This document shows, one piece after another, positions 6,759 through 60,121 of a DNA stretch of 64,000 nt. This DNA comes from Candidatus Multivorans sp. (lineage in GTDB: Bacteria; Acidobacteriota; Thermoanaerobaculia; Multivoradales; Multivoraceae). Position numbers and translations under genes: made by a program. The stretch's first letter is position 1; each line of letters begins with the position of its first letter. Location of the stretch: contig OZ244786.1 in assembly GCA_965219675.1 (NCBI GenBank), forward strand, positions 3,674,597 through 3,738,596. The letters are read 5' to 3'. Under the pieces are notes generated by a model. The model saw only the letters and a program-made list of their open reading frames with translations, was not told the origin of the DNA and did not search any database.

Positions 6759-6786
6759 TCGGCGCGAAGCGCCGCCATCCGCCTGG

Positions 6787-7704
6787 TCAGCCACAGCACC
6801 CACGGCATTCCGTCCGCCTGACTTCTCCCTTCCGGTTCATCTCCCGGATCGCTTCGAGCCGGGCCTCCCGGCAGGCGACGCACGCCGAACCCACCCGTTC
6901 CAGGTCCCAGGGGTCCACCTGCACCGCCGCCTTGCCGGCGACCGCCTGCAGCCCGAGCTCCAGCGCCTCCTCCACGACCGCCAGGTCCGGCGCCTCGAAC
7001 CGACCGAGCCGCTGCAGCCGTTCCAGCTCCCCGTTGCCGCCGCGGACCGGGATCAGGGCCACCGACCGCGCACCGGCCTCCGCCGCATGCCGCACGCTCG
7101 CAGCCGCCCAGCGTGCCTGCTCCTCCGCCGGCACGAAGGGCACGCCCACGAGCACGAACGCCCGCAGGTCCACGCCGTCCGCCAGCAGCCGAGCGGCCGC
7201 CCGGTCGAACTGCTCCAGGGTCAGCTCCTTGCCGAGCCGCGGCAGGGCCCGCGGGTGAACCGTCTCCAGGCCCATCGCCACCTCCAGGCGACCCTCGAGC
7301 CGGTCGGCGAAGCGGCGCACCCGGCCGTCCACCAGGCGCGGGTGGCACTCGACGAGCACCCGCTCGAAGCCGTCCGCGAGCCGCGCGATCGGTTCCAGAT
7401 CCGCCTCCGGCACCGCCCTCGTCTCGAAGAAGTTGCTCGCGTTGTAGAGCTTGAGCCGGTCGCAGCGTTCGAGTCCCGCCTCGGCGAGCAGACGGGGCAG
7501 GTCCTCGAGAGCCGAGCGCAACTGCGCCGGCAGCGCCCCCTCCGGCGTCGGCCCCGGGATCGTGAAGCGCCACAGGTCGCAGAAGACGCAGGTGAACGGA
7601 CACTCGGCGCCGGTCAGGAACACGGTCGCCGCCGGACGGAGTTCGCCGCCCGGCTCCCGTTCCAGCTCGACCGTCACCCCCTGGTGTTGCCAGGGGTCGT
7701 GCAC
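6787..7704 (-). CDS. radical SAM domain protein (start uncertain; ORF open to 7848 through a REP remnant)
   Basis: CPFTCVFC = CxxxCxxC motif; probable GTG start at 7704 (VHDPWQ...); upstream codons 7775-7837 are REP-derived (GDWVRRRPRRL). Confidence 0.55.
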   Translation of the reverse strand: MHDPWQHQGVTVELEREPGGELRPAATVFLTGAECPFTCVFCDLWRFTIPGPTPEGALPAQLRSALEDLPRLLAEAGLERCDRLKLYNASNFFETRAVPEADLEPIARLADGFERVLVECHPRLVDGRVRRFADRLEGRLEVAMGLETVHPRALPRLGKELTLEQFDRAAARLLADGVDLRAFVLVGVPFVPAEEQARWAAASVRHAAEAGARSVALIPVRGGNGELERLQRLGRFEAPDLAVVEEALELGLQAVAGKAAVQVDPWDLERVGSACVACREARLEAIREMNRKGEVRRTECRGCCG

Positions 7705-7774
7705 GGGACGCGGCGGACGGAGCGCCCGCACCTCCGCCGCCGCCGGACCGCCAACCGTGCCCTCGCGCGGAGTA

Positions 7775-7837
7775 TGGCCGCCGCTTCGCGGCGCGTCTTC
7801 CTCAGAAAGCCGGCGAGGACGCCGGCGCACCCAGTCG
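7775..7837 (-). repeat. degenerate REP-like element
   Basis: ccggcgaggacgccggcgcacccagt matches REP core. Confidence 0.5.
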
Positions 7838-7852
7838 CCGCGGCGCAACTTG

Positions 7853-9181
7853 TCAGGCGTAGAGCGACTGGAAGTGGCGGCGGTACTGCTCGGGCGGACG
7901 GTCGAAGGCGGCGGCGAACACGTCCGCCGACGCCGCGCCCTCCTGGAAGCGCCGCTTGGGGAAGACCGGGAAGTCGATCCCGAGCACCCGCTTCATGCCT
8001 CGCCGCACGACTTCGCCCTTCAGTTCGTACAACGCCTCGTGCGAGCCGCCGACCAGGGCATCGAACGGGATCGCCTCGGCCACCGCGATCACCGCCGGCC
8101 GGGTGAAGGGACTGAACCCCTCGAAACCGAGGTGCCGGGCCGGCGCGTGAGTGCGCACGGTCGCCCTGCCGAGGCCGCCCGAGTAGGTCTGCGAGTGCTT
8201 GATCGCGTCGACGCCCCAACCCTCCTGGTAGAGCATGGAGTTTCCCACGACGCTGGTGATCGTGAGTTCCTGGTTCTCCTCCAGCGGGTAGTCCTTCAGG
8301 TTCTCGTCGCCGCCGTCGCCGTCCACCAGGAGCCGCCAGTCGGGATAGCGCGCGCGGATGCCCCGCAGCAGCGCCAGGCCGACCGCGGCGCACTCGACGT
8401 CGAGCGGCTTGTAGTCCTCGATCACCTCGACCGCCCGCAGCGGATCGACCGCTTCGGCGCCGGCCTCGATCTCCTCGCCCAGCATCTCCAGATCGACGCG
8501 TCGGAGGAACTCGCGCGCCTGGGCGGCGTCGTCCGCGCCGTCACCGACGCGAAGCGTGAACGCCTTGAGCCGCGCGCCGCTCGCACCACCCTCGAGCAGC
8601 GCGCGATTGAGCGCCACCAGCACGGCGCCGCTGTCGATGCCGCCGGAGAAACAGACCCCGACCGGTTCCCGCGCCCGGTCCTCCGGCATCGCGGCCAGCC
8701 AGCCGCGAAGTTCGAACATCAGGGCCTCGACGTAGCGCTCGCCGATCAGGTCCAGGTCCGGCGGCAGGGTGCCGCGCGGCGGATCGAAGAAGCGCTCGTG
8801 AGTCGGGTTCGGATCGGGGCAGCCGATCAGGCGCAGCGTCGTCTGGTGATGCGCCGGGACCATCCGCGTGTAGGTGGGGTGGAACTGGTCGAGGTAGCCC
8901 TCGGCCGCAAGACAGTCCCTGATCTCGTCGATCCGCTGGGCGATGACGAGCATCGGCCCGGACGACTCCTTGGCCAGGAAGTAGCGCATCGGCCGGTCGA
9001 GGCTGCGGGCCATCACGACGTCCACTCCGCGCCGCGCGGCGAGCGCGAACGACCCGTCGATTCCCAGCACCGCGTCGGGGCCGGCAAGCAACCGTTGCCG
9101 GGCCTCGTCCGCCGTCAGGTTCCACAGCCGCTGTTCCCCGTCGTCGATCAGATTGAGAACGCGTGCGATCGGTCTGTCCAC
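7853..9181 (-). CDS. asparagine synthetase B-family protein lacking the N-terminal Cys glutaminase nucleophile
   Basis: PP-loop GVCFSGGIDSG; AsnB C-terminal synthetase domain; GTG start, no N-terminal MCG. Confidence 0.65.
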   Translation of the reverse strand: MDRPIARVLNLIDDGEQRLWNLTADEARQRLLAGPDAVLGIDGSFALAARRGVDVVMARSLDRPMRYFLAKESSGPMLVIAQRIDEIRDCLAAEGYLDQFHPTYTRMVPAHHQTTLRLIGCPDPNPTHERFFDPPRGTLPPDLDLIGERYVEALMFELRGWLAAMPEDRAREPVGVCFSGGIDSGAVLVALNRALLEGGASGARLKAFTLRVGDGADDAAQAREFLRRVDLEMLGEEIEAGAEAVDPLRAVEVIEDYKPLDVECAAVGLALLRGIRARYPDWRLLVDGDGGDENLKDYPLEENQELTITSVVGNSMLYQEGWGVDAIKHSQTYSGGLGRATVRTHAPARHLGFEGFSPFTRPAVIAVAEAIPFDALVGGSHEALYELKGEVVRRGMKRVLGIDFPVFPKRRFQEGAASADVFAAAFDRPPEQYRRHFQSLYA

Positions 9182-16529: not shown

Positions 16530-16629
16530 GGAAGCGCTCGGGGGCTGGTGCCTCCTGCGGTCTTCAAAACCGTTGTCCGGGGCGTGATGCGTCTCCGGGG
16601 GTGGGTTCGATTCCCATGCGCTTCCGCCA
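16530..16629 (+). tRNA. selC: tRNA-Sec (selenocysteine, anticodon UCA)
   Basis: 8-bp acceptor stem GGAAGCGC/GCGCTTCC, 6-bp D-stem with 4-nt loop, anticodon loop CTTCAAA (UCA), long variable arm, T-arm GTGGGTTCGATTCCCAT, discriminator G + CCA. Confidence 0.8.
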
Positions 16630-16744
16630 CCGGCGACCGGGTCTTCACAAGTCGCTGGTCCGGGGCGTGATGCGTCTCCGGGGGTGGGTTCGATTCCCAT
16701 GCGCTTCCGCCACGGGCGACCGGGTCTTCACCAGTCGCTCGTCC
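16579..16744 (+). repeat. tandem duplication (2 x 83 bp) of tRNA-Sec 3' part (variable arm to CCA) plus a 30-nt downstream hairpin
   Basis: Unit 16579-16661 repeated at 16662-16744 with 2 substitutions; GTCC microhomology at junctions. Confidence 0.75.
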
Positions 16745-16750
16745 GTGCCG

Positions 16751-39104: not shown

Positions 39105-40279
39105 CCCGCCACCGCCCGGACGGCCGGCTCCGCGGACAGCCCCCGCAACGCCTCCACTTCGCGCGCCAGCACCGGCAGGAAACTCGCGAGCTCCGCTTCG
39201 TCGTTCGTCGGCCCCAGGCTGATCCGGATCGACGCCAGGGCCTCGGCCGGCTCGACGCCCATCGCCAGCAGCGTCCGGCTCGGCTCGACGACGCCCGAGG
39301 CGCACGCCGCCCCGGTCGAGACCGCGAAGCCGGCGAGGTCGAGGCGGACGACGAGCTCCTCGCCGATCAGGCCGGGAAACGCGACGTGGGTCGTATGCGG
39401 CAGGCGCGGCGACGAGGCGCAGTGCAACCGCGCCTCAGGGATGTCGCCGAGGCCGGCCTCGAGCCCATCGCGGAGGCGACCCAACCGCTCGATGCGATCG
39501 TCAAGTTCCTCTGACGCCAAGGCCGCGCAGACCCCGAAACCGACGAGGGCCGCGACGTTCTCCGTGCCGGCCCGTCGCCGCCGCTCCTGGCCGCCGCCGA
39601 GGATGAGCGGCTCGAAGGCCGCGCCCTCCCGGATCCAGAGCGCTGCCGCCCCCACCGGCCCGTTGAACTTGTGCGCCGCCACGACGAGGTAGTCCGCGCC
39701 AAGGGCCCCCGCGTCGACGGCGAGCTTGCCCGCCGCCTGCACCGCGTCGCAAAGGAGCGGCACGCCGCGCGCACGGCACGCCGCGGACGCCTCGGCGACC
39801 GGCTGCACCGTGCCCAGCTCGTTGTTCGCCAGCATGAGGCAGGCAAGGCGGGTGTCCGGCCGGAGCGCCGCCGCGACGGCCCCCGCGTCGACGACGCCGT
39901 CAGCCCCCGGACAGAGCCGCGTCACATCCACGCCAAGCCCCTCCAAGCGGTCGGCAGCCGCGTGAATCGAGGGATGCTCCAGCTCCGAGATCACCAGGTG
40001 GCCGCGCTCCCCGCCGGCGAACGCCGAGAGCAGCACCGCGTTGTTCGCCTCGGTACCCGAGGCGACAAACACGACCTCCGGCGGCTGCCCGCCGACGAGC
40101 TCCGCCACCTGCTCCCGCGCGAGTTCCACCGCGGCCCGCGCCTCGCGGCCAAAGGCATGGACCGACGAGGGGTTCCCGTGCCGCACCCCCAGCCACGGCG
40201 CCATCGCGTCGCCGACCCGCGGATCGAGCGGCGTGGTCGCGTTGTGGTCGAGGTAGACGGGTGGGGTTGGGGTGGGCAT
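39101..40279 (-). CDS. cysteine desulfurase (NifS/IscS family)
   Basis: PLP lysine motif AAHKFNGPVGAAAL, class V aminotransferase; ATGA overlap with mnmA; upstream extension of track ORF is REP-encoded. Confidence 0.8.
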   Translation of the reverse strand: MPTPTPPVYLDHNATTPLDPRVGDAMAPWLGVRHGNPSSVHAFGREARAAVELAREQVAELVGGQPPEVVFVASGTEANNAVLLSAFAGGERGHLVISELEHPSIHAAADRLEGLGVDVTRLCPGADGVVDAGAVAAALRPDTRLACLMLANNELGTVQPVAEASAACRARGVPLLCDAVQAAGKLAVDAGALGADYLVVAAHKFNGPVGAAALWIREGAAFEPLILGGGQERRRRAGTENVAALVGFGVCAALASEELDDRIERLGRLRDGLEAGLGDIPEARLHCASSPRLPHTTHVAFPGLIGEELVVRLDLAGFAVSTGAACASGVVEPSRTLLAMGVEPAEALASIRISLGPTNDEAELASFLPVLAREVEALRGLSAEPAVRAVAG

Positions 40280-40310
40280 GGTTGTGGTGGATTGTACGTT
40301 TAGAGGGGAA

Positions 40311-40542
40311 GGTGCCGGCCTTCGGCCGGCCGCATCCTGGCCGCCTGCGGCGGCAGCCGGCGGGGACGCCGGCGCACCCGGTAGAGATGCCGGCCGAAGG
40401 CCGGCCGTATCCTGGCCGCCTTCGGCGGCAGCCGGCGAGGACGCCGGCGCACCCGGTAGAGGTGCCGGCCTTCGGCCGGCCCGTATCCTGGCCGCCTTCG
40501 GCGGCAAGCCGGCGAGGACGCCGGCGCACCCAGAGAACGACC
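40311..40542 (+). repeat. tandem array of 3 x 75-bp REP units (contain GTAG tetranucleotide)
   Basis: tgccggccgaaggccggccgtatcctggccgccttcggcggcagccggcggggacgccggcgcacccggtagagg repeated. Confidence 0.8.
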
Positions 40543-40562
40543 CTTCCCGGGGCGCGAGTCTC

Positions 40563-41300
40563 TACTCCAAGTCACCGCTCGCAGCGACGTCCTGACGGCT
40601 GCAGAAGAGAAGCACGCCCCACCGACCATCGCTCGCTGGGTGCGCCGGCGTCCTCGCCGGCTGCCGCCACAGGCGGCCAAAACCAACGCGCCGGCCGAAG
40701 GCCGGCTCCGCTCACCACTCGCAGCGACGTCCTGACGGCTGCAGAAGAGAAGCACACCCCGCCGACTATCGCTCGCTGGGTGCGCCGGCGTCCTCGCCGG
40801 CTTGCCGCCGCAGGCGGCCAAGACCAACGCGCCGGCCGAAAGGCCGGCTCCGCTCACCGCTCGCAGCGACGTCCTGACGGCTGCAGAAGGAAAGCACGCC
40901 CCACCGACCATCGCTCGCTGGGTGCGCCGGCGTCCTCGCCGGCTGCCGCCGCAGGCGGCCAAAACCAACGCGCCGGCCGAAGGCCGGCTCCGCTCACCGC
41001 TCCCAGCGACGTCGTGACGGCTGCTGAAGAGAAACACGCCCCACCGACCATCGCTCGCTGGGTGCGCCGGCGTCCTCGCCGGCTGCCGCCGCAGGCGGCC
41101 AAAACCAACGCGCCGGCCGAAAGGCCGGCTCCGCTCACCGCTCCCCAGCGACGCCCTGACGGCTGCAGAAGAGAAGCACGCCCCACCGACCATCGCTCGC
41201 TGGGTGCGCCGGCGTCCCCGCCGGCTGCCGCCACTGGCGGCCAAAACCAACGCGCCGGCCGAAAGGCCGGCTCCACTACCTCCGCTCCCCCGCCGCCCCC
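40563..41300 (+). repeat. tandem array of ~5.5 x 141-bp units (REP core + ~95-bp spacer with two further hairpins)
   Basis: ctgggtgcgcc recurs at 40636, 40776, 40918, 41058, 41200. Confidence 0.85.
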
Positions 41301-41343
41301 GCCGCCCCCGAAGCCCAAGCCCAGGCGGTACGCTTGACGACCG

Positions 41344-43926
41344 ATGAACGCCGCACGCAGAGCCTCGATCCTGGCCCTGGCGGCGGGCCTCCTCTTTGCC
41401 TTCACCGCCCCGGCGCCGGCGCAGGAGAGGAAGGAAACCCGCAAGGAGCGGCGCGAGCGACGGGCGGCGCTCGAGGCCGCCGAGGCGGCTCTGCCGCTCG
41501 AGTTCAAGACCTTCCTCGACGACGTTCACTTCCTGATCAGCGACGGGGAGCGCGAGGCGTTCCTCGAAGTCACCCAGGACTACCAGCGGCGCGCCTGGAT
41601 CGAGCGGTTCTGGCGGCTTCGCGACTCCTACCCCGAGACGCCGCGCAACGAGTTCCGCGCCCGCTGGGAGGAGCGGCTGCTCTACGTCCGGCAGGAGTTC
41701 GAGGGACCCCGTTCGGACCGGACGCGCATGTACCTGCTGAACGGCGGGCCCGGCGGGCGGCTCAAGTTCCAGTGCACGATGGTCACCTGGCCGATCGAGA
41801 TCTGGTTCTACCAGCGCAGCGAAACGGTCGGCCACGAGTTCTTCCTGCTGTTCTACCGCCGCGCCAACCAGCCCCACTACGAACTGTGGCACCCCGCCGA
41901 CGGCCTGGACCGTCTCCTGGACTTCGGCGTCAGCGCGCAGGCGGCCGCCGGCGACATCCAGAGCTGCAAGGACGGCGACGTCGCGGCCTCCGCGATCAAC
42001 TGGCTTCTGCGATCGAACGGCATGGAGTTCGCCACGCTGATGGCGCGCCTGATCGAACCGCCCGAGGCGCCCTCGGCGGAGTGGACGCTCACGTTCGAGG
42101 CCTACACCACGGACGTACCGGAGGACGCCGAGCCCCTCGACGCCTCGCTCGAGGTTCGCTACCCGGCCCGCTACCAGGCGCGCACCGTGGTCGAGTCGGT
42201 AGTCGAGATCGAGCCGTCCTCGGCCCGCCGGGACGAGGTCGGCGGACAGTCGAGCTACAACTTCTTCCTCACCGGCGAAGTGCTGCGCGAGGATGCGCTG
42301 TTCGAGAACTTCCGCTACAAGTTCGACCTGCCCCTGGGCACCGACGCCGACGCCACCGACGACGCAGGCACGAACGCCGCGAGCGGCGACGACCCGCCCA
42401 TCCTGCTCACCTTCGAACGGCGGCTGCGACCGGGCAACTACCGCCTCGTGCTCAAGATCGAGGACCTGAACGGCGCCCGCTTCGCGCGCCTCGAACAGCC
42501 GCTCGACGTGCCGACGCTCGAGGCGCCCGCCGCCCGCCAGCTCGACCCGGCAGTCCAGAAGATCATCGACCAGGCCGAGGCGGTGCTCACCAGCAGCGTG
42601 CCCACGGTGCAGCTCCTCGAACCGCCGGGCGAACTCCAGACCGGCCTGGTGCGCTTCGACACCCTGGCGACCGGCGACATCGCCGAGATGCGATTCTGGC
42701 TCGACGGCAACCAGGTCGCCCGCAAGCGCAGCGCGCCGTTCTCCGTCGAACTCGACCTGGGGTCCGTGCCGCGCGTCCACGTCCTGCGCGCCACGGCCCA
42801 CGACGGGAGCGGCGACGAGGTCGCCTCGGACGAGATCTCCCTGAACTCCGGCCGCAACCGCTTCGCGCTCCGCTTCGCCGAGCCGCGCGAGGGCGTGAAG
42901 TACGAGGGCGAAGTCCAGGTCGAGGTCGACCTCGCGGTCCCGGACGGCAGCCTGGTCGAGCGCCTGGAACTGTTCCTCAACGACGAACCGATCGCCACGC
43001 TCTACCAGGAGCCCTTCAGCCAGCGGGTCGAACTGCCGCCGGGCGACGAGATCACCTACCTGCGCGCCGCGGCCTTTCTCGTCGACGGCAACTCGACCGA
43101 CGCGGTCGTCTACGTCAACGCGCCGGACTACCTGGAGATCGTCGACATCCAGTACGTCGAGCTCTACGCCTCGGCGCTCCACCGCTCGGGCCGCCCCTAC
43201 GAGGACCTGCAACCCGACCAGGTCACGATCCTCGAGGACGGCACGCCGCAGGACATCCTCCGCTTCCAGCGGGTGACCGACCTGCCCGTCCACCTCCAGG
43301 TGATGCTCGACGTCTCGGCCTCCATGGTCGACCGCCTGGCCACGGCCCGCGAGGCTGCCCTCGGCCTGTTCCAGTCGGAGATCACGCCCCGCGACCGGGC
43401 GGCCCTGGTGACCTTCAACGACCATCCGTACCTCGCCTCCGACTTCACGAACGACCCCGCGAAGCTCGCCGGATCGCTCGCCGGCCTCAAGGCCGAGCGC
43501 GGCACGGCCCTCTACGACGCCCTCGTCTTCGGCCTCTACTACCTGAACGGGATCAAGGGCCAGCGGGCCTTGCTGCTGCTCTCCGACGGGAAGGACGAGA
43601 GCAGCCGCTTCAGCTTCGAACAGGCCCTCGAGTACGCGCAGCGATCCGGGGTCGCGATCTACGCGATCGGGCTGGGACGCCAGAGCGGCCCGGCCAAGCG
43701 GGCGCTGTCCCGGCTCGCCGAACGGACCGGCGGCCGCTCCTTCTTCATCAGCAGCGTCGGCGAACTCGCCGGCGTCTACGGCCACATCCTCGGCGAGCTG
43801 CGCTCCCGCTACCTGATCACCTACCAGTCGACGAACACGAGCGGCGACCGCCGCTTCCGCCAAGTGGAGGTCGACGCCGAGGTGCCGGGGGTGTCGGTGC
43901 GGACGCTGAAGGGGTACTACCCTTGA
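41344..43926 (+). CDS. GWxTD-domain, Ig-like repeat and C-terminal VWA-domain secreted protein
   Basis: Signal peptide; RFWRLRDSYPETPRNEF (GWxTD), VWA MIDAS-like DVSASM...ALYDAL; ~860 aa. Confidence 0.65.
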   Translation: MNAARRASILALAAGLLFAFTAPAPAQERKETRKERRERRAALEAAEAALPLEFKTFLDDVHFLISDGEREAFLEVTQDYQRRAWIERFWRLRDSYPETPRNEFRARWEERLLYVRQEFEGPRSDRTRMYLLNGGPGGRLKFQCTMVTWPIEIWFYQRSETVGHEFFLLFYRRANQPHYELWHPADGLDRLLDFGVSAQAAAGDIQSCKDGDVAASAINWLLRSNGMEFATLMARLIEPPEAPSAEWTLTFEAYTTDVPEDAEPLDASLEVRYPARYQARTVVESVVEIEPSSARRDEVGGQSSYNFFLTGEVLREDALFENFRYKFDLPLGTDADATDDAGTNAASGDDPPILLTFERRLRPGNYRLVLKIEDLNGARFARLEQPLDVPTLEAPAARQLDPAVQKIIDQAEAVLTSSVPTVQLLEPPGELQTGLVRFDTLATGDIAEMRFWLDGNQVARKRSAPFSVELDLGSVPRVHVLRATAHDGSGDEVASDEISLNSGRNRFALRFAEPREGVKYEGEVQVEVDLAVPDGSLVERLELFLNDEPIATLYQEPFSQRVELPPGDEITYLRAAAFLVDGNSTDAVVYVNAPDYLEIVDIQYVELYASALHRSGRPYEDLQPDQVTILEDGTPQDILRFQRVTDLPVHLQVMLDVSASMVDRLATAREAALGLFQSEITPRDRAALVTFNDHPYLASDFTNDPAKLAGSLAGLKAERGTALYDALVFGLYYLNGIKGQRALLLLSDGKDESSRFSFEQALEYAQRSGVAIYAIGLGRQSGPAKRALSRLAERTGGRSFFISSVGELAGVYGHILGELRSRYLITYQSTNTSGDRRFRQVEVDAEVPGVSVRTLKGYYP

Positions 43927-43937
43927 GGTTGGGACGG

Positions 43938-46589
43938 ATGTGGAGCCGGCCTGCGGCCGGCGCGTCTTCCGGCCGCCTTCGGCGGCAGCCGGCGGGGACG
44001 CCGGCGCACCCAGTGGCGGCTCCACTCCTTCTTCGGCGGCGGCCGGCGCACCCAGTGGTGGTGGTGCTGCTGCTTCTCGCGAGCGCGGCTGTTGCCCAGG
44101 ACGCGTCCACGAGCACGCTCGACCGGCGGCACGCCGAGTTCCTCGAGGTCGCCTCGGCGATCCTGACCGACACGGAGCGGCGCGTGTTCGGCGAGCTCCG
44201 GCACGACTACCAGCGCGACGCGTTCATCCAGCGGTTCTGGAGCGTCCGCGACCCGTATCCCGAGACGCCGCAGAACGAGTTCCGGGAGCGCTTCGAGCGC
44301 ACCCTCGAAATGGCCGAGGAGCGTTTCGGCGACGCGCGCGGCGCCCGTTTCGAGGCTCTGCTGCTGCACGGCGAACCGCAGCGGACGTTCACCACAACGT
44401 GCCAACTGCTCCGCACGATGGAGATCTGGCACTACCCGCACAGCCCGGTGGTCCGCGGCGAGTTCTACCTCGTCTTCCTGCGCCAGGGCGGCGGTTACCG
44501 GTTGTGGACGGCCGCCGACGGCCTGTCCGCCATCATGGTCTTCACCGCCGGCGGGCTCGACCGCGCCTCCCGGATCGAGGAGATCGGCCGGGAGTGCTCG
44601 CGCGGCGGCGACGTGCTGACCGCCCTGGGCCTCGCCCTCGACTGGGAGGCGATGGGCGGCGAGCCGGAACCCGGAAAGGCGAACGACGAATGGGCGCTCG
44701 CCTTCCTCGATCGCAGCACGGAGGCGCCCGCCGACGCGGAGCAACTCGCGGCCGAGATCGCGATGCGCTACCCGGGGCGGCGCGGCAGCCGCACCGTGGT
44801 CCAGGCGATCGTCGGCATCGACCCGGCGTTGCTGCCCGAGGCGGAGAAGGACCGCCGGCGCTTCGTGCTCGACGGCGAGGTGCTGCGGCAGGGCGAGCTG
44901 TTCGAGAACTTCCGCTACCGCTTCGAGCCGCGGACCCGGCCCGGCGAGCAGGGCGGCGAGACGGTTCCGCTGGTCATGCAGCGCTACCTGCGGCCGGGGG
45001 CGTACCGCCTGGTCGTCAAGGTGCGCGATCTGGACGCGGAGCTGTACTTTGCGGCGGAAGCCGAGATCGAGGTGCCGCTTGTGCCGCGGACGGCGGAGGC
45101 GGAGGCGGAGCCGGAGCCGGAGCCGGCCAGAGGGCCGGCGCACCCAGTGGCGGAGCACCCGGTGGCCGGCAGGCCGGGCCTGCCGGAGTGGCTGGCCGAA
45201 GTGAACGCGGCCACGCCAGGCGACGTGGAATCGGACGAGCACATCGTCCGCATTCTCCCGCTGCCCGAGCGGCTCCTCGTGGACCGGGTCCGCATCGGCG
45301 CGGACGCCGAGGGTCCCGACATCCACCGCGTCGCCTTTTCCCTGGATGACCGGGAGCTGATCAGCAAGCGACGGCCGCCTTACCAGGTCGATATCGACCT
45401 GGGGCCGACCCCGCGCGTTCACACCCTGCGCGCCGACGCCTACGACGAGCAGGGCGGCGTCCTGGCAACCGACGAGGTGCTCGTCAACTCCGGGCCCCAC
45501 CGCTTCACCGTCCGCCTGACCTCGCCCCAGCGCGGCGCCGTCCACACCCGCAGCGTGCGGGCCGTCGCCGAGGTCGAGGCGCCGCGCCACGAGCGGCTGG
45601 ACCGGGTCGAGTTCTTCCTCAACGACACCCGCACCGCGACGCTCTACCAGCGGCCGTTCGAGCAACCGATCCGGATCGATCCCGACGAGCCCCTCTCCTA
45701 CGTTCGCGCGGTGGCCCACCTGGAGAGCGGCGCCTGGGCCGAGGACCTCGTGTTCGTCAACTCGCGCGACCTGGACGAGGAAGTCGACGTCGCCCTGATC
45801 GAGCTCTACACCTCGGTCACGGACCGCTCCGGAGCGCCCCTGCTGGGACTCGCGGAGAGCGACTTCCAGGTCCTCGTCGACGGCGAACCTCAGTCCCTCC
45901 AGCGGTTCGACCGCGCCGCCAACCTGCCGGTTCACGCCGGCATCCTCTTCGACACCTCGACCTCCATGGTCGACCGCATCGACGCCGCCGAGGAGGCGGC
46001 CCTCCACTTCTTCGAACTCGTCCTCGGTCCGCAGGACCGCGCCTGCCTGATCACCTTCAACGACCGGCCCGAACTCGCCGTCGGCTTCACCGGCTCCCGG
46101 GAGACCCTGGCCGGCGGCCTCGCCGACCTGGCCACCGAGGGCGAAACCGCGCTCTACGACAGCGTCCTCTACGCGCTCTACTACTTCGGCGGACTGCGCG
46201 GCAAGCGGGCGCTCATCCTGCTCACGGACGGCGGCGACTCCAGCAGCGAGCACCGCTACGACGACGTGCTCGACTTCGCGCGCCGCACCCAGGTCGCGAT
46301 CTACAGCATCGGCATCGACATCAGCCCGCGCGAACTCCTCGTCCGCGGCCGCCTGCAGCAACTCTGCGACGAGACCGGCGGCCGCTGCTTCTTCATCACC
46401 GGCGCCAGCGAACTGAAACGCGTCTACGAACGGATCGAAACGGAAGTCCGCTCCCAGTACCTGCTCGTCTTCGAGTCGCCCAACGGCGAGCCCGGCGCCT
46501 TCCGCAAGGTCGACGTGAAGCTGAAGAACCCACGCGCCCACGGCAAACGCGGCCTGAAAGTCCAGACCATCCAGGGCTACTTCCAGTGA
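43938..46589 (+). CDS. GWxTD/Ig-like/VWA-domain secreted protein, paralog of 41344..43926 (start uncertain: ATG 43938 with REP-encoded n-region, or GTG ~44055)
   Basis: QRFWSVRDPYPETPQNEF, VWA DTSTSM...ALYDSV; hydrophobic signal VVVVLLLLASAAVA follows REP-coded segment. Confidence 0.6.
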   Translation: MWSRPAAGASSGRLRRQPAGTPAHPVAAPLLLRRRPAHPVVVVLLLLASAAVAQDASTSTLDRRHAEFLEVASAILTDTERRVFGELRHDYQRDAFIQRFWSVRDPYPETPQNEFRERFERTLEMAEERFGDARGARFEALLLHGEPQRTFTTTCQLLRTMEIWHYPHSPVVRGEFYLVFLRQGGGYRLWTAADGLSAIMVFTAGGLDRASRIEEIGRECSRGGDVLTALGLALDWEAMGGEPEPGKANDEWALAFLDRSTEAPADAEQLAAEIAMRYPGRRGSRTVVQAIVGIDPALLPEAEKDRRRFVLDGEVLRQGELFENFRYRFEPRTRPGEQGGETVPLVMQRYLRPGAYRLVVKVRDLDAELYFAAEAEIEVPLVPRTAEAEAEPEPEPARGPAHPVAEHPVAGRPGLPEWLAEVNAATPGDVESDEHIVRILPLPERLLVDRVRIGADAEGPDIHRVAFSLDDRELISKRRPPYQVDIDLGPTPRVHTLRADAYDEQGGVLATDEVLVNSGPHRFTVRLTSPQRGAVHTRSVRAVAEVEAPRHERLDRVEFFLNDTRTATLYQRPFEQPIRIDPDEPLSYVRAVAHLESGAWAEDLVFVNSRDLDEEVDVALIELYTSVTDRSGAPLLGLAESDFQVLVDGEPQSLQRFDRAANLPVHAGILFDTSTSMVDRIDAAEEAALHFFELVLGPQDRACLITFNDRPELAVGFTGSRETLAGGLADLATEGETALYDSVLYALYYFGGLRGKRALILLTDGGDSSSEHRYDDVLDFARRTQVAIYSIGIDISPRELLVRGRLQQLCDETGGRCFFITGASELKRVYERIETEVRSQYLLVFESPNGEPGAFRKVDVKLKNPRAHGKRGLKVQTIQGYFQ
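43950..44057 (+). repeat. REP elements (inverted orientation) overlapping the 5' end of the downstream paralog
   Basis: ggccgccttcggcggcagccggcggggacgccggcgcacccagtgg plus partial second copy. Confidence 0.75.
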
Positions 46590-47362
46590 GCCAGGCTACC
46601 CCACCCGGTACACCGACCTCCCCACCGGGTGCACAGACCTCCCCACCGGGTGCGCCGGCGTCCCCGCCGGGTGCACAGACCTCCCCACTGGGTGCACAGA
46701 CCTCCCCACTGGGTGCGCCGGCGTCCCCGCCGGCACCAGGCGCGCAGCCGCGAAGCGGCGCGCGCGAACCGTCGACACCCGCCCCCCTGATCCTCGCCTC
46801 CGCCTCCCCCCGCCGCCGCGAGCTCCTCGCCTCCCTCGACCTCGACTTCACCGTCCGCCCCGCCACCGTCGACGAGACCCCGAACCCCGGCGAACGGCCC
46901 CGCGACCTCGTGCGGCGCCTCGCCCGCGAGAAAGCCGAGGCCCAGGCCGAGGACGGCGAATGGGTGCTGGCCGCCGACACGATCGTGGTCACCGAAGGCG
47001 AAGTCCTGGGCAAGCCCTCCGACCGGACCGAAGCCCGCTCCATGCTTGGACGCCTCCAGGGCCGCTGGCACCTCGTCCTCACCGGCGTCGCCCTCCGGCC
47101 GCCAGACGGCGACACACTCCACGCCGTCGAGAGCACCCGGGTCCTGTTCGCCGAACTGACCCCTGAGCAGATCGACTGGTACGCCGAGACCGGCGAGCCT
47201 GACGACAAGGCCGGCGCCTACGCCGTCCAGGGCCTGGGCAGCCTCTTCATCCTCGAGATCGACGGCAACTACAGCAACGTCGTCGGCTTGCCGCTACCAA
47301 CGGTGCGGCAGTTGTTCGAGGGGGCCGGGAGTGACGTCAGGGCCTTTCGACGACGAAGGTAG
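46586..47362 (+). CDS. maf: Maf-like nucleoside triphosphate pyrophosphatase (start uncertain: GTG 46586 overlapping upstream stop, or near 46787)
   Basis: LILASASPRRRELL Maf N-terminal signature and C-terminal Maf motifs. Confidence 0.6.
   Translation: MSQATPPGTPTSPPGAQTSPPGAPASPPGAQTSPLGAQTSPLGAPASPPAPGAQPRSGAREPSTPAPLILASASPRRRELLASLDLDFTVRPATVDETPNPGERPRDLVRRLAREKAEAQAEDGEWVLAADTIVVTEGEVLGKPSDRTEARSMLGRLQGRWHLVLTGVALRPPDGDTLHAVESTRVLFAELTPEQIDWYAETGEPDDKAGAYAVQGLGSLFILEIDGNYSNVVGLPLPTVRQLFEGAGSDVRAFRRRR
46600..46740 (+). repeat. tandem 21-bp repeats (~7 copies) derived from REP 5' core
   Basis: cccac(c/t)gggtgc(a/g)c... units; period 21 = 7 codons. Confidence 0.7.
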
Positions 47363-47387: not shown

Positions 47388-47415
47388 GCCACTGGGTGCG
47401 CCGGCCTTCTGGCGG
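47388..47415 (+). repeat. REP-like fragment (CTTCTGG variant)
   Basis: ccactgggtgcgccggccttctggcggc. Confidence 0.5.
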
Positions 47416-49170: not shown

Positions 49171-49336
49171 CCACTGGGTGCCACTGGGGAGCGCCACTGG
49201 GTGCGCCGGCGTCCTCGCCGGCTTCCGGCGGAGCCGCGAAGCGGCGAAGCAGAGGAGCAGCCGCCGGCCGAAGGCCGGCGACGTTTTCTCCGCCGCCTGC
49301 GGCGGCAGCCGGCGGGGACGCCGGCGCACCCAGTGG
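49171..49336 (+). repeat. MITE-like element with ~28-bp REP terminal inverted repeats
   Basis: CACTGGGTGCGCCGGCGTCCTCGCCGGC ... GCCGGCGGGGACGCCGGCGCACCCAGTG; near-identical copy at 51494-51682. Confidence 0.85.
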
Positions 49337-51452: not shown

Positions 51453-51493
51453 GCGGATGATCGTACTACCGGGTGCGCCAAGGAAGATGCGTC

Positions 51494-51682
51494 ACAGGGT
51501 GCACCGCTGGGTGCGTCCACTGGGTGCGTCCACTGGGTGCGCCGGCGTCCTCGCCGGCTTCCGGCGGAGCCGCGAAGCGGCGAAGCAGAGGTGCAGCCGC
51601 CGGCCAAAGGCCGGCGACGTTTTCTCCGCCGCCTGCGGCGGCAGCCGGCGGGGACGCCGGCGCACCCAGTGGGGTACCCAGT
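51494..51682 (+). repeat. MITE-like element with REP terminal inverted repeats (copy of 49171-49336)
   Basis: Same TIRs and core as 49171-49336 with extra 5' half-repeats. Confidence 0.85.
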
Positions 51683-56436: not shown

Positions 56437-56902
56437 CAGTTGGTTTTCTCCTTGAGCGGCTTTGCGCCGCCGTTCGTTTGGCCGAACCGGCCGTATGCCG
56501 GCCCGGCAGTTCTTTGATCCGAAGATCAGGTCGCAACGGTGCGGATGACCCGCTTTGTCGCGACCCCTGACGTTCTCTCTGCTGACGGCAACCGGCTCGT
56601 GCGAGCCGTCAACCGCCAACTTCGCTGATGCTGCGCATCACCTCCCGCTAAAAGACTTCAAGGCCGTCTGTCCAAGACGTGAGGGAACTTTAGCCGAAAC
56701 GACGGTGAAGATCCAGTGATGCCGAGGCCGTAGCCAAGTGGGCACAAAGGGATCAGGAAGCGCCGTTCCAACCGAAATCAGTTCCTCCGAAGCTCGACAC
56801 TATAGGGCCTTCGAGGGGATTCGTCAAGGGGCGGGTGTGTGAGAGTCAAATTATTGAGGGGATTGGGGTTATGGGCGGCGGCCGGATGCTGGCCGGAGGG
56901 CG

Positions 56903-59113
56903 GTGCGGGCGGTGGCGGGATGCACCCCGTGGCTGGTATCGTCGCTCGCTGCGATGGACGGTCTCGGAGCTTCGATCCTGACCCCGATGCCGGCCGGACG
57001 GCCGGCGCAGCCAGTGACCGGATATCGGCCCGAGGGAACGCGTCTCGACCGGATGATCGCCGCGGCGACGGGCAGGCTGCTCGAGGAGCAGCGGCCCGAC
57101 GGCCACTGGTGCGCCGAGCTCGAAGGCGACACGATCCTGGAGTCGGAGTACGTGCTCCTGCTCCACTTTCTGGGGCGCGGCGACGACCCTCGCGTCCGGG
57201 CCTGCTGCGAACGGCTGCGGAACACGCGGCTCGGGACGGGCGGCTGGTCGATTTATCCGGGCGGGCCGGCGGACGTCAGCGCTTCGGTCAAGGCGTACCT
57301 GTGCCTGAAGATCGCGGGAGACGACGTGGAGTCGCCGCCGATGGCCGCGGCGCGGCGCGCGATCGTGGAGGCCGGCGGCCTGGGCGCCTGCAACTCGTAC
57401 ACGAAGCTGCTGCTCGCGGTCTTCGGGTTGTGGCGCTGGCGCGACGCGCCGGCAGTGCCGCCGGAGATCGTGCTGTTGCCGCGGTGGTTCTACTTCAACC
57501 TGGATGAGATGTCGGCGTGGACGCGGGCGATTGTGGTGCCGCTGTCGGTGGTTTGGGCGTTGAAGCCGGGCGTGGAGGTGGAGGTGGGGTTGGAGGAGTT
57601 GCGGGGTGGCGGCCGGATGCCGGCGGGGACGCCGGCGCACCCAGTGGCGGACCGCGCCTGGTCGGTGGTCTTTGGTGGGGTGGACAGGTTGATCAAGTTC
57701 GTGGAGAGGGTCGGGCCGGTGCCGGGGTGGCGGCGGCGGGCTCTCGAGGAGGCGGAGGCCTGGATGACGCCTCGGCTGGGGGGAGACGATGGCCTGGGGG
57801 CGATCTTTCCGGCGATCGTGAACGCGGTCATGGCGCTCAGGGCCCTAGGGTACGAGGAGGATCATCCCCTGGTCCAGGGCCAACTGCGGGCGCTCGAGCG
57901 GTTCGAGATCGAGGACGCGAGCGGGAAAGCGGCGGAGATGAGGCTCCAGCCGTGTCTCTCCCCGGTCTGGGACACCGCGCTGTCGATGAACGCGCTCCTC
58001 GCGTCGGACGGGGATGGCGAGGCGGCGGCGCTGCAGCACGGCCTGCGGTGGCTGCTCGACCGCGAAGTGACCGCGCCGGGAGACTGGCAGCGAAAGAGCC
58101 TGCAGCAGGCGCCGGGCGGCTGGTGCTTCGAGTACGGCAACGACTTCTACCCGGACTGCGACGACACCGCCGAGGTCCTGGCCGTGCTGGCCGGGCTCAG
58201 GGGCGAGAACGAGGAGCTGGAGTGGCGGCGGCAGGCCGCCGTGTCCCGCGGCCTGCGCTGGCTGCGCGGCATGCAGAACCCGGACGGCGGCTGGGCCGCG
58301 TTCGACCGCCGCTGCGACAAGGAGATCCTGACCCGCATCCCGTTCGCGGATCACAACGCGATGATCGACCCGAGCACCGCGGACATCACGGCGCGCGCCG
58401 TCTGCGCCCTGCTCGCGCACGGCGGCGACCGCTCGGATGCCGCGGTCCGGCGCGGGGTGGAGTTCCTGCTGCGGATGCAGGAGAGCGACGGGAGCTGGTA
58501 CGGCCGCTGGGGCGCGAACTACGTCTACGGAACCTGGCTCGCGCTGGCCGCGCTGTCGCAGGTCGGCGGCGCCGGCGGCACCGGCGAGGCGGACGAGCGG
58601 CTCCCGCGCGCGATGCGGGCGGGGCGCGACTGGCTGCTCGGAGTCCAGAACGCGGACGGCGGATGGGGCGAGTCGCTGCACTCGTACGCGGATGCGAACG
58701 CGAAGGGGCAAGGCCGGAGCACGGCGTCCCAGACCGCCTGGGCGATGCTCGGGTTGATCGCGGCGGCCGGTCCGGGGGCCGCGGCGGGAGAGCGGAGCGC
58801 GGTCGGCGCGGCGCTCGAGCGGGCGGTCGGATTTCTGGGTGAGCGGCAGGGGCCGGATGGCGGCTGGGAGGATCGGGAGTGGACGGGGGTCGGCTTCCCG
58901 CGGGTGTTCTATCTTCGGTACCACGGCTATGGGGTCTACTTTCCGTTGGAGGCACTGGCGGGGTATCGGGAGTGGAGCCGGATGCCGGCGGGGACGCCGG
59001 CGCACCCAGTGGCGGAGCGGATGCCGGCGGGGACGCCGGCGCACCCGGTGGCGGAGCGGATGCCGGCGGGGACGCCGGCGCACCCAGTGGTGGGGCACAC
59101 GGTTCCTTCTTGA
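56903..59113 (+). CDS. shc: squalene-hopene cyclase (alternative starts at 56954 or 56987; carries in-frame REP insertions and a REP-encoded C-terminal tail)
   Basis: DCDDTAEV (DxDD) class-II terpene cyclase motif, multiple QW repeats, N-terminal alignment to SHC (LDR...EYVLLLHFL). Confidence 0.8.
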   Translation: MRAVAGCTPWLVSSLAAMDGLGASILTPMPAGRPAQPVTGYRPEGTRLDRMIAAATGRLLEEQRPDGHWCAELEGDTILESEYVLLLHFLGRGDDPRVRACCERLRNTRLGTGGWSIYPGGPADVSASVKAYLCLKIAGDDVESPPMAAARRAIVEAGGLGACNSYTKLLLAVFGLWRWRDAPAVPPEIVLLPRWFYFNLDEMSAWTRAIVVPLSVVWALKPGVEVEVGLEELRGGGRMPAGTPAHPVADRAWSVVFGGVDRLIKFVERVGPVPGWRRRALEEAEAWMTPRLGGDDGLGAIFPAIVNAVMALRALGYEEDHPLVQGQLRALERFEIEDASGKAAEMRLQPCLSPVWDTALSMNALLASDGDGEAAALQHGLRWLLDREVTAPGDWQRKSLQQAPGGWCFEYGNDFYPDCDDTAEVLAVLAGLRGENEELEWRRQAAVSRGLRWLRGMQNPDGGWAAFDRRCDKEILTRIPFADHNAMIDPSTADITARAVCALLAHGGDRSDAAVRRGVEFLLRMQESDGSWYGRWGANYVYGTWLALAALSQVGGAGGTGEADERLPRAMRAGRDWLLGVQNADGGWGESLHSYADANAKGQGRSTASQTAWAMLGLIAAAGPGAAAGERSAVGAALERAVGFLGERQGPDGGWEDREWTGVGFPRVFYLRYHGYGVYFPLEALAGYREWSRMPAGTPAHPVAERMPAGTPAHPVAERMPAGTPAHPVVGHTVPS
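57609..57647 (-). repeat. REP element inserted in-frame within shc
   Basis: ggcggccggatgccggcggggacgccggcgcacccagtg encoding GGRMPAGTPAHPV. Confidence 0.75.
58978..59094 (-). repeat. 3 tandem 39-bp REP units forming the 3' end of the shc ORF
   Basis: ggatgccggcggggacgccggcgcacccagtggcggagc x3, encoding RMPAGTPAHPVAE x3. Confidence 0.8.
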
Positions 59114-60121
59114 GTGGATATGAGAACGCCGCTTCATCTTGTGGTCGACAACCTGGTGCTCCAGGCGCGGAACGCGCTGCGGGGCAGGAAGAGGTACCCG
59201 TTCGTGCTGATGCTCGAACCGCTGTACACGTGCAACCTGGCCTGCATCGGCTGCTCCGTGGAGCGGCATACCGGGAAGCTCAAGGACCGGATGGCGGTGG
59301 CGGACTGTCTCGACGCGGTCGAGGTCACCGAGGCGCCCGTCGTCTCCATCTGCGGCGGCGAGCCGACGATCTACCCCGAGCTTCCGGAGCTCGTCGCGGG
59401 CATCATCGCCCGGCGCCGGCACATCTACCTCTGCACGAACGCCCTGCTGCTCGACACGAAGGTCTTCGGCCGCGTGCCCCCGCACCGCCGCCTGACGCTG
59501 AACGTCCACCTCGACGGGATGCGCGAAACCCACGACTATGTCTGCGCGCGCGAGGGCGTGTTCGACAAGGCGGTCGAGATGATCCGGGCCGCGAAGGAGC
59601 TCGGCTACCGCGTGAGCACGAACACGACCGTGTTCAAGGAGACGCGGATCGAGGAGGTCGAGGAGCTCTGCGGCTTCCTGCGCGATCTGGACGTCGACGG
59701 GATGCTCATCTCGCCCGGCTACCAGTACGAGTCGGTCGACCGGGACATCTTCCTCACCCGGCAGGACTCGCAGGACAAGTTCCTGCGCATCCTCGAGATC
59801 GCCGACGAGTACAAGCTGACTTCGACGCCCATGTACCTCGAGTTCGCCGCCGGAATCCGGGACTACTCCTGCTCTCCCTGGAGCACGGTGACCAGGACGC
59901 CGCTCGGCTGGAAGGGGCCGTGCTACCTCATCGCCAAGCGCTACTACCCGACCTTCGAGGAGTTCTGGGACGAGACGGACTGGGACTACTGGGAATCCCG
60001 CGAGGATCCGCTGTGCGCGAACTGCGCGATGCACTCGGGCTTCGAGGCCTCCGCGGTGCGCGAGGCGAACCGGAACCCGCGGGACCTCGCGCGGCTCGCG
60101 GCCTGGCAACTCTCGGGTTGA
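59114..60121 (+). CDS. hpnH: hopanoid biosynthesis radical SAM protein HpnH (adenosylhopane synthase)
   Basis: CNLACIGC radical-SAM cluster motif; HpnH family length; follows shc. Confidence 0.85.
   Translation: MDMRTPLHLVVDNLVLQARNALRGRKRYPFVLMLEPLYTCNLACIGCSVERHTGKLKDRMAVADCLDAVEVTEAPVVSICGGEPTIYPELPELVAGIIARRRHIYLCTNALLLDTKVFGRVPPHRRLTLNVHLDGMRETHDYVCAREGVFDKAVEMIRAAKELGYRVSTNTTVFKETRIEEVEELCGFLRDLDVDGMLISPGYQYESVDRDIFLTRQDSQDKFLRILEIADEYKLTSTPMYLEFAAGIRDYSCSPWSTVTRTPLGWKGPCYLIAKRYYPTFEEFWDETDWDYWESREDPLCANCAMHSGFEASAVREANRNPRDLARLAAWQLSG

Follow-up and report, generated by a model that had tools for sequence, protein, structure and literature searches.

Probable exonisation of REP repeats at gene overlaps and in an interdomain linker of a GWxTD/VWA-maf operon of Candidatus Multivorans

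Can a repeat that is treated as extragenic by definition become part of a protein when it lands where one gene ends and the next has already begun? The question is raised by a three-gene operon within a stretch of 64,000 nucleotides (the window) from Candidatus Multivorans sp. (Acidobacteriota; Thermoanaerobaculia; assembly GCA_965219675.1, contig OZ244786.1, positions 3,674,597 to 3,738,596 of the forward strand), in which repetitive extragenic palindromic (REP) sequences occupy both gene junctions and a segment of the second gene. Annotation pipelines usually trim genes in such a way that REPs are left out. A comparison of the operon with its relatives indicates that the REP inserts are probably kept in frame and read as protein (exonisation).

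The first-pass annotation, made from the letters of the window alone, had named two paralogous GWxTD/VWA genes followed by maf, and these identities are borne out by Pfam and NCBIfam domain matches. The genes of the operon are:

41344-43926, plus strand: GWxTD/VWA paralog 1, the first gene of the operon (Pfam/NCBIfam)
43923-46589, plus strand: GWxTD/VWA paralog 2, with its start at 43923 or 43938 (Pfam/NCBIfam)
46586-47362, plus strand: maf, with GTG 46586 overlapping the paralog 2 stop (GTGA) and the Maf domain running from 46784

Both paralogs score above the cut-offs for TIGR04514 and TIGR03436 (GWxTD and acidobact_VWFA). The maf product scores 202 bits against PF02545 (cut-off 27) and 170.5 against TIGR00172 (cut-off 117); residue 3 of Bacillus subtilis Maf (PDB 1EX2) aligns with its residue 66, and its N-terminal SxSPRR motif is LILASASPRRRELL (residues 68-81). 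Exact-protein look-ups for paralog 1 and for this Maf, taken from GTG 46586, returned no matching record. The three genes form an operon without intergenic space, the start/stop overlaps being an arrangement of translational coupling. Paralog 1 itself has a true upstream intergenic region, and its REPs stay outside the gene: a comparison of N-termini across orthologs shows an ordinary signal peptide (MNAARRASILALAAGLLFAFTAPAPAQE) and a REP-free coding sequence.

The repeats form a dispersed family whose core, GGCGCACCCAGTGG, has 44 matches with at most two mismatches in the 64-kb window (70% GC) compared with 1.8 ± 1.4 in shuffled sequences. Aligned copies define a full unit that consists, in order, of the hairpin GCCGGCCNNNGGCCGGC followed by GGCCGCCTTCGGCGGC, GCCGGCGGGGACGCCGGC and GCACCCAGTGG. 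The build is modular: a copy has either one variable hairpin or two (GCCGGCCTTCGGCCGGC, GGCCGCCTTCGGCGGC or GCGCGCCGCTTCGCGGCTGCGCGC), together with the hairpin GCCGGCGGGGACGCCGGC, which is constant, and the tail GCACCCAGTGG. Individual elements measure about 30-110 bp with about 80% GC. As in the REP-RAYT system (REPtron; RAYT, REP-associated tyrosine transposase), they are short, GC-rich, imperfect palindromes present in many dispersed copies. The tetranucleotide GTAG is found only in the sub-variant GCACCCGGTAG (40371, 40446, and 51466), where it is set off from the hairpin, 7 nt away from the stem; GCACCCAGTGG is the tail that is conserved. The canonical unit contains no stop codon in any of the frames, which makes exonisation easy, and close relatives are polymorphic for the presence or absence of REPs.

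At the first junction, paralog 1 ends with TGA at 43924-43926 and is followed by:

43945-44058, plus strand: forward-orientation REP unit at the 5' end of paralog 2, read in frame as 'PAGTPAHPV'
44055-44096, plus strand: hydrophobic core of paralog 2 with an AVA cleavage site before QD, VVVVLLLLASAAVA, aligning with the native MTVVLLTLLATAALA before QD of REP-free orthologs

The REP comprises hairpins at 43945-43961, 43971-43986, and 43988-44005 and cores at 44006-44016 and 44048-44058, and the translation of the region is ...GRLRRQPAGTPAHPVAAPLLLRRRPAHPVVVVLLLLASAAVAQD. Four candidate starts of paralog 2 share a single frame: TTG 43923, which overlaps the paralog 1 stop as TTGA, ATG 43938, GTG 44013, and GTG 44055-44064. 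The first-pass annotation had started paralog 2 at ATG 43938, with a REP behind it and a hydrophobic signal core behind the REP. The in-frame ATG, the REP and the core were all confirmed, the last by its alignment with REP-free orthologs, but the overlapping TTG had been missed. The ancestral start of paralog 2 appears to be the codon that overlaps the paralog 1 stop, which makes ATG 43938 a second start located five codons downstream. The ATG is possibly the start now in use; either it or TTG 43923 may be the start in the window. Initiation may also take place at the GTGs of 44055-44064, which come from the REP. There are good grounds to predict that the junction REP would encode the arginine-rich n-region (about 40-45 aa) of the paralog 2 signal peptide, whose h-region and AVA site before QD are visible on inspection of the sequence and are conserved across orthologs. 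A Tat-type signal (RRRPAHPVVVV) was considered and dropped, as the segment does not fit the S/T-RRxFLK pattern.

At the second junction, GTG 46586 overlaps TGA 46587-46589, and the following elements were identified:

46599-46765, plus strand: reverse-orientation REP before the Maf domain, read in frame as 'PLGAPASPPA'
TSPPGAQTSPPGAPASPPGAQ: example of a peptide predicted from the REP segments
SQATPPGTPTSPPGAQTSPPGAPASPPGAQ: example of a predicted tryptic/semi-tryptic peptide of the REP-encoded tail

Tandem Repeats Finder reports a period of 21 at 46599-46716 (5.6 copies, 85% matches) and also a period of 63 (2.1 copies) that extends to 46733; counted by hand, there are six full 21-bp units and one partial unit (46599-46745), the partial one running into the hairpin GCCGGCGTCCCCGCCGGC. 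Hairpins are located at 46654-46670, 46717-46734 (GCCGGCGTCCCCGCCGGC), and 46740-46765 (GCGCGC...GCGCGC), and two of them are still intact. The array had been described on first reading as an expansion of the REP 5' core; it is present, but it is part of a whole reversed REP in which the core has multiplied. As first annotated, GTG 46586 is in frame with the array, and the Pfam Maf domain begins at residue 67 of the resulting 258-aa open reading frame (ORF). The next canonical in-frame start is GTG 46911, inside the Maf domain. These features make a strong case that Maf would carry an N-terminal tail of about 64 aa, mostly REP-encoded, rich in Pro, Ala, Gly, and Ser and presumably disordered. 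The window gains 174-183 nt over its closest relatives (92-94% nucleotide identity), which points to a recent expansion of the tail: the locus L001, with 94% nucleotide identity across the operon, has a single core at maf and L084 has none.

The frame of the inserts was tested across relatives. About 75 orthologues of paralog 2 (68-96% identity) were found in public data. Orthologous DNA was obtained for L001-L003 by exact look-up, for 39 GTDB species representatives (L004-L041 and L078, metagenome-assembled genomes named Thermoanaerobaculia, 'Candidatus Multivorans', and Holophagales), and for four further close metagenomic contigs (L084, L085, L086, and L141). As an outgroup, some 40 loci at a greater distance (38-48% identity) were used, in which a VWA gene is likewise followed by maf.

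In all orthologous maf loci (46/46; 42 + 4), the paralog 2 stop and a GTG overlap as GTGA. The distance from this stop to the L(A/G)SxSPRR motif of Maf ranges from 14 to 275 nt and takes 26 distinct values, every one of which is 2 mod 3 and therefore in frame with the overlapping GTG. In most REP-bearing loci, the window included, no ATG, GTG, or TTG other than that GTG stands between the motif and the in-frame stop upstream. Minimal, REP-free forms of Maf include VSGELVLASASPRR, M-SGE-LVLASASPRR, and M-SAPGP-LILAS (VSAPGPLILAS; the last in L084, with a Maf 94% identical to the window's). The other loci carry from one to about seven REP cores together with hairpins (PLGAPASPPAS..., AEGGIRP, EAGQKAGAPT), with a copy number that varies among orthologs and is always in frame. 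In the outgroup, which serves as a control, maf has its own start in a real spacer and gaps >36 nt split 6/6/6 among the three length classes. Long gaps are thus in frame in 27/27 loci of the clade versus 6/18 of the outgroup (Fisher p = 6.5e-7). As a separate observation, the Maf proteins of L002 (7511-8254) and L003 (7655-8398) have an insertion of about 16 aa within the domain, GARNGEQATSEDTRDAGQSH, relative to the window and L001, which is not obviously REP-derived.

The first junction behaves in the same way. A start codon overlaps the paralog 1 stop in 43/43 loci; about 39 of them read GTGA (CCCGTGA in most loci), L026 has ATGA, and the window, L086, and L141 have TTGA. Between the stop and the mature N-terminus of paralog 2 (LDRRHA[DE]FL) lie 56-353 nt, with 27 distinct values that are all in frame. 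REP-free loci encode a short native signal peptide (e.g., MRWGAFLCFLAAAAGAQD or MTVVLLTLLATAALAQD), and in REP-bearing loci the insert follows the first 2-5 codons and precedes the hydrophobic core. At both N-termini the inserts keep the frame, are free of stops and have flanks that match the REP-free orthologues; across the two junctions there are 0 stops in the reading frame and 19 in the other two frames, the upstream genes' own stops excluded. The repeat-derived exonisation proposed in the first-pass annotation, with frame-compatible repeat lengths in relatives, is thereby supported at 46/46 maf and 43/43 paralog 2 junctions. All three TTGA loci also have an in-frame ATG a few codons on, donated by the REP in L086 and L141, which hints at a shift of the start codon following REP insertion.

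The third site is the linker between the domains of paralog 2:

45086-45186, plus strand: paralog 2 interdomain linker, a GCGGAG low-complexity run plus REP, encoding AEAEAEPEPEPARGPAHPVAEHPVAGRPGLP

A full REP at 45122-45186 (hairpin 45122-45139, cores 45140-45150 and 45155-45165, hairpin 45166-45186) encodes ...ARGPAHPVAEHPVAGRPG... and places PAHPV peptides in the linker. In the alignment of 75 orthologues, the part bounded by EIEVPLV and PDWLAEANA is hypervariable, ranging from about 10 to >100 residues and full of REP translations; it is absent from the shortest orthologues, with homologous flanks and a frame kept without a stop. The linker is predicted to be disordered, since residues 345-393 have a predicted local distance difference test (pLDDT) score of 27-31 and no secondary structure in the AlphaFold2 model, between beta-rich domains at 80-90. 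REP peptides occur here in three combinations of orientation and frame, and over the three sites five of the six combinations occur in the reading frame (PAHPV, RAPSG, TGCA, HWVR, and PLGA, counting exact cores). A search with a 50-aa concatemer of REP peptides against a database of 5.8 billion proteins gave no significant match, the query being too short for a database of that size. The linker, whose REP the first-pass annotation had not mentioned, is the strongest single case of exonisation, which is near-certain at this site.

The lengths of the tandem units follow the same rule. Among the REP-core-containing tandem arrays of the window and 47 related loci, the period is divisible by three in 16/16 arrays inside the three sites (12, 15, 18, 21, 27, 33, 36, and 39) compared with 8/16 elsewhere (p = 0.0024), where periods include 10, 13, 14, 142, 163, and 265. 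One array in the window, at a non-coding junction of two minus-strand genes (51488-51541), consists of a core-only 13-bp REP unit (4.3 copies), in contrast to the 21-bp period at maf. The spacer between mnmA and paralog 1, considered as a control, yielded only four usable loci owing to 4-kb flanks that were too short, with gaps of 240, 240, 205, and 89 nt (0, 0, 1, and 2 mod 3). Synteny among relatives does not extend to the gene downstream of maf, which therefore gives no anchor.

Several observations weigh against a translated REP. The in-frame GTGs of the REP core at 44055-44064 would yield a native-like signal peptide, MVVVLLLLASAAVA, resembling the MTVVLLTLLATAALA of REP-free orthologs; a downstream GTG was picked by the gene caller in the closest ortholog (P0001, in L001), and the overlapping start of paralog 2 in the window is the weaker TTG. 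Gene callers have assigned three different starts to one gene among close relatives. The REP segments lack the coding bias in GC content at third codon positions (GC3), which sets in no earlier than about 44085 and about 46785; its absence is expected if the inserts are young. The loci are phylogenetically related, so that independent insertion or deletion events are fewer than loci, and the maf REP has one orientation and one frame in 21/21 loci that carry it, which fits one old insertion with subsequent in-frame length changes and not many independent insertions. For paralog 2 as a whole, the quality of the AlphaFold2 prediction is modest, with a mean pLDDT of 59. The REPs could accordingly be untranslated intercistronic spacers and the long ORFs accidents of a 70% GC genome, with paralog 2 starting at GTG 44055-44064 and maf at a non-canonical CTG (46787) or ATC (46790) or by re-initiation. 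This would agree with the late onset of GC3 bias and the start call in L001, with alternative frames that are open for kilobases in this genome, and with a survey in which many N-terminal REPs of other species were judged not codogenic (Di Nocera et al. 2013, PMC3733652). We consider it unlikely, as an untranslated spacer would not hold the frame, whereas the junction lengths are in frame at every locus despite their 26 and 27 different values and distribute over all three classes in the spacer-bearing distant taxa. The lack of stops in the one frame that matters and the array periods, which are multiples of three always at the sites and half the time elsewhere, also speak against spacers, and no canonical maf start exists between 46586 and the catalytic N-terminal motif in the window and at least 14 REP-bearing orthologs. 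The downstream starts that the first-pass annotation had offered as an alternative survive in part: GTG 44055 may serve as an extra start, but maf has no canonical start near 46787.

If the REP segments are translated, as we prefer, the arrays might in addition be selected for a function of their own, with hairpins that tune coupling, expression, or stability, or a tail length that acts as a contingency-like switch. REPs located after stop codons in Escherichia coli reportedly affect translation of the upstream gene and mRNA stability. In the operon, REP hairpins are intact within coding sequence, the REPs lie 10-20 nt past the upstream stops, and the same three sites are REP-filled over much of the genus with a fast-changing copy number. 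Close relatives without inserts nonetheless do well (L084; L002 and L005 at the paralog 2 junction; L015 and L021 at maf), and insert content, orientation, and frame vary by lineage as would be expected of neutral passengers. Folding of the RNA of both junctions gave energies modestly below those of shuffled sequences (z = -2.4 and -1.7), so that no claim of a structural RNA is made; an Rfam scan of the junction region matched no family, and no terminator-like sites were found in the junctions. Selection for such a function therefore seems improbable. A more specific form, in which the arrays are dual-coding regulatory modules whose hairpins are melted by ribosomes arriving from the overlapping start and whose copy number tunes the output of paralog 2 and Maf or the efficiency of the signal peptide, is a speculative idea that we hold to be unlikely; if true, dual-coding REP arrays would be a contingency-like dial made from a mobile repeat. 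We infer instead that the REP peptides are functionally neutral passengers and not adaptive.

The likeliest route to exonisation begins with a host that carries an active REP-RAYT repeat family. The candidate enzyme is encoded in the window:

34948-35556, minus strand: RAYT (Y1 transposase) gene, Pfam PF01797 (E 5e-8), 63% identity to the Y1_Tnp gene of L001 (tblastn)

Inverted REP cores are present on both sides of the gene (34889-34902, plus strand; 35597-35610, minus strand), an arrangement that indicates a genuine REP-RAYT system, and the product is presumed to be the mobilising enzyme of the REP family in the window. REPs would settle mostly within about 20 nt 3' of stop codons, and insertion may have been RAYT-mediated or recombinational. 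In the operon the start of the downstream gene overlaps the stop, so an insert landing just past the stop would already lie in the 5' coding end of the gene that follows. Survival would be limited to in-frame, stop-free insertions in tolerant segments, of which there appear to be three: in paralog 2, the n-region of its cleavable signal peptide and the disordered interdomain linker, and in Maf, the few residues that separate the start from the first beta-strand (LILASASPRR). After insertion, REP cores would multiply by slippage, only in units divisible by three (21, 33, 39 bp, and others). In L001 a paralogous RAYT gene (63% identity) lies directly upstream of paralog 1, adjoining the orthologous operon. 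By analogy with that position, a plus-strand ORF at 39671-40303 was considered as the RAYT gene of the window and rejected, being the antisense of an aminotransferase gene; the real RAYT gene is the one at 34948-35556.

The operon offers a natural experiment for REP DNA in proteins, with starts pinned to upstream stops, >25 length variants per junction, and spacer-bearing relatives as a control. The rule that it suggests is simple: overlapping genes combined with the preference of REPs for post-stop sites lead to N-terminal exonisation. This bears on the annotation of gene starts, on the origin of low-complexity tails and long signal-peptide n-regions, and on mobile repeats as raw material for proteins. 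In E. coli, REPs and BIMEs (bacterial interspersed mosaic elements) within operons are said to stabilise mRNA at malE-malF, and a REP within about 15 nt of a stop is said to lower upstream translation; these elements resemble those of the window as GC-rich hairpin repeats directly 3' of a stop within an operon transcript and differ in being extragenic. No mention of Ca. Multivorans was found in the literature searched.

REP families generally lie mostly just downstream of ORFs and their stop codons (PMC3733652). A minority of GTAG/CGTC REPs are intragenic, encode 20-80 aa and are over-represented at N-termini, where most cases were judged to be probably non-codogenic (Di Nocera et al. 2013, PMC3733652). 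The repeats described here share with them the REP/RAYT type and a location of some copies within ORFs; unlike in that survey, a conserved overlapping start and a frame test over 43-46 loci favour translation, and the host is an acidobacterium. Rickettsia palindromic elements (RPEs; Ogata et al. 2000) are, according to the accounts in PMC3733652 and PMC3184786, found in frame at permissive sites of functional genes. They are thus likewise dispersed palindromic repeats in coding genes, some of them at the N-termini of expressed proteins, but as described there they are 100-150 bp long and AT-rich, lack a linked RAYT and belong to the reduced genome of an intracellular organism. The repeats of the window, in contrast, are a RAYT-linked REP family at start/stop overlaps with frame-preserving tandem arrays, and the likeness is one of description. 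Mycobacterial interspersed repetitive units (MIRUs; Supply et al. 1997, as reported in PMC3184786) are tandem units of variable copy number in polycistronic operons, with reading frames that overlap the flanking stop and start codons. That account shows a similar preservation of start/stop overlap and translational coupling through tandem repeats; MIRUs, however, are presented as separate small ORFs and not as RAYT-associated REPs, whereas the repeats of the window would be fused to the downstream protein. In-frame palindromic repeats were therefore already known, and the present case does not constitute a new category; what appears to be new is an example from the Acidobacteriota with comparative evidence that N-terminal cases code.

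REP sequences affect further places in the window. The divergent intergenic region between a class-V aminotransferase gene (minus strand) and paralog 1 (plus strand), at 40275-41343, is packed with REP/REPIN arrays, including a 75-bp unit in 2.9 copies (40313-40531) and a 142-bp unit in 5 copies (40572-41274). The longest aminotransferase ORF (start 40507) extends into the 75-bp array, and its Pfam domain begins only at residue 84. At two more gene junctions, on the minus strand at 5139-7992, the downstream ORF has REPs at its 5' end; these ORFs are a FAD-dependent halogenase-like gene (...RRMPARRPAHPVSAVAERREVVIAGGGFAGS, core at 6728) and a radical-SAM gene (core at 7824). An in-frame ATG (MPA[GR][TR]PAHPV) comes with the REP variant GGATGCCGGC..., and gene callers placed the start there in several orthologues (P0002, P0004, and P0005).

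REP-derived peptides also occur in a squalene-hopene cyclase (56858-59113, plus strand; Pfam N domain at residues 67-353, C domain at 367-704). One, GGGRMPAGTPAHPVADRAW, belongs to an N-domain loop (core 57634-57647), and a C-terminal tail of about 41 aa consists of three 39-bp REP units (RMPAGTPAHPVAE in three copies, 58974-59090) and continues as far as the stop codon (59111-59113); the part that aligns to PDB 1GSZ ends ahead of this tail. The gene that follows is an hpnH-like radical SAM gene (59114-60121).

Downstream of the operon, the segment 47455-49160, which contains a gene for 138 aa and a phosphopentomutase-like gene, runs in the opposite orientation to its counterpart in L001, L002, and L003. 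REP cores bound the segment (47389-47402; 49171-49207 / 49323-49336), which suggests a REP-mediated inversion, and a 400-aa gene of L001 is missing from the window near it. Elsewhere in the window, a tRNA-Sec gene (16530-16625; Rfam, 74 bits) overlaps an 83-bp tandem repeat of 2.1 copies (16575-16745) that duplicates the 3' part of the tRNA including the T-arm.

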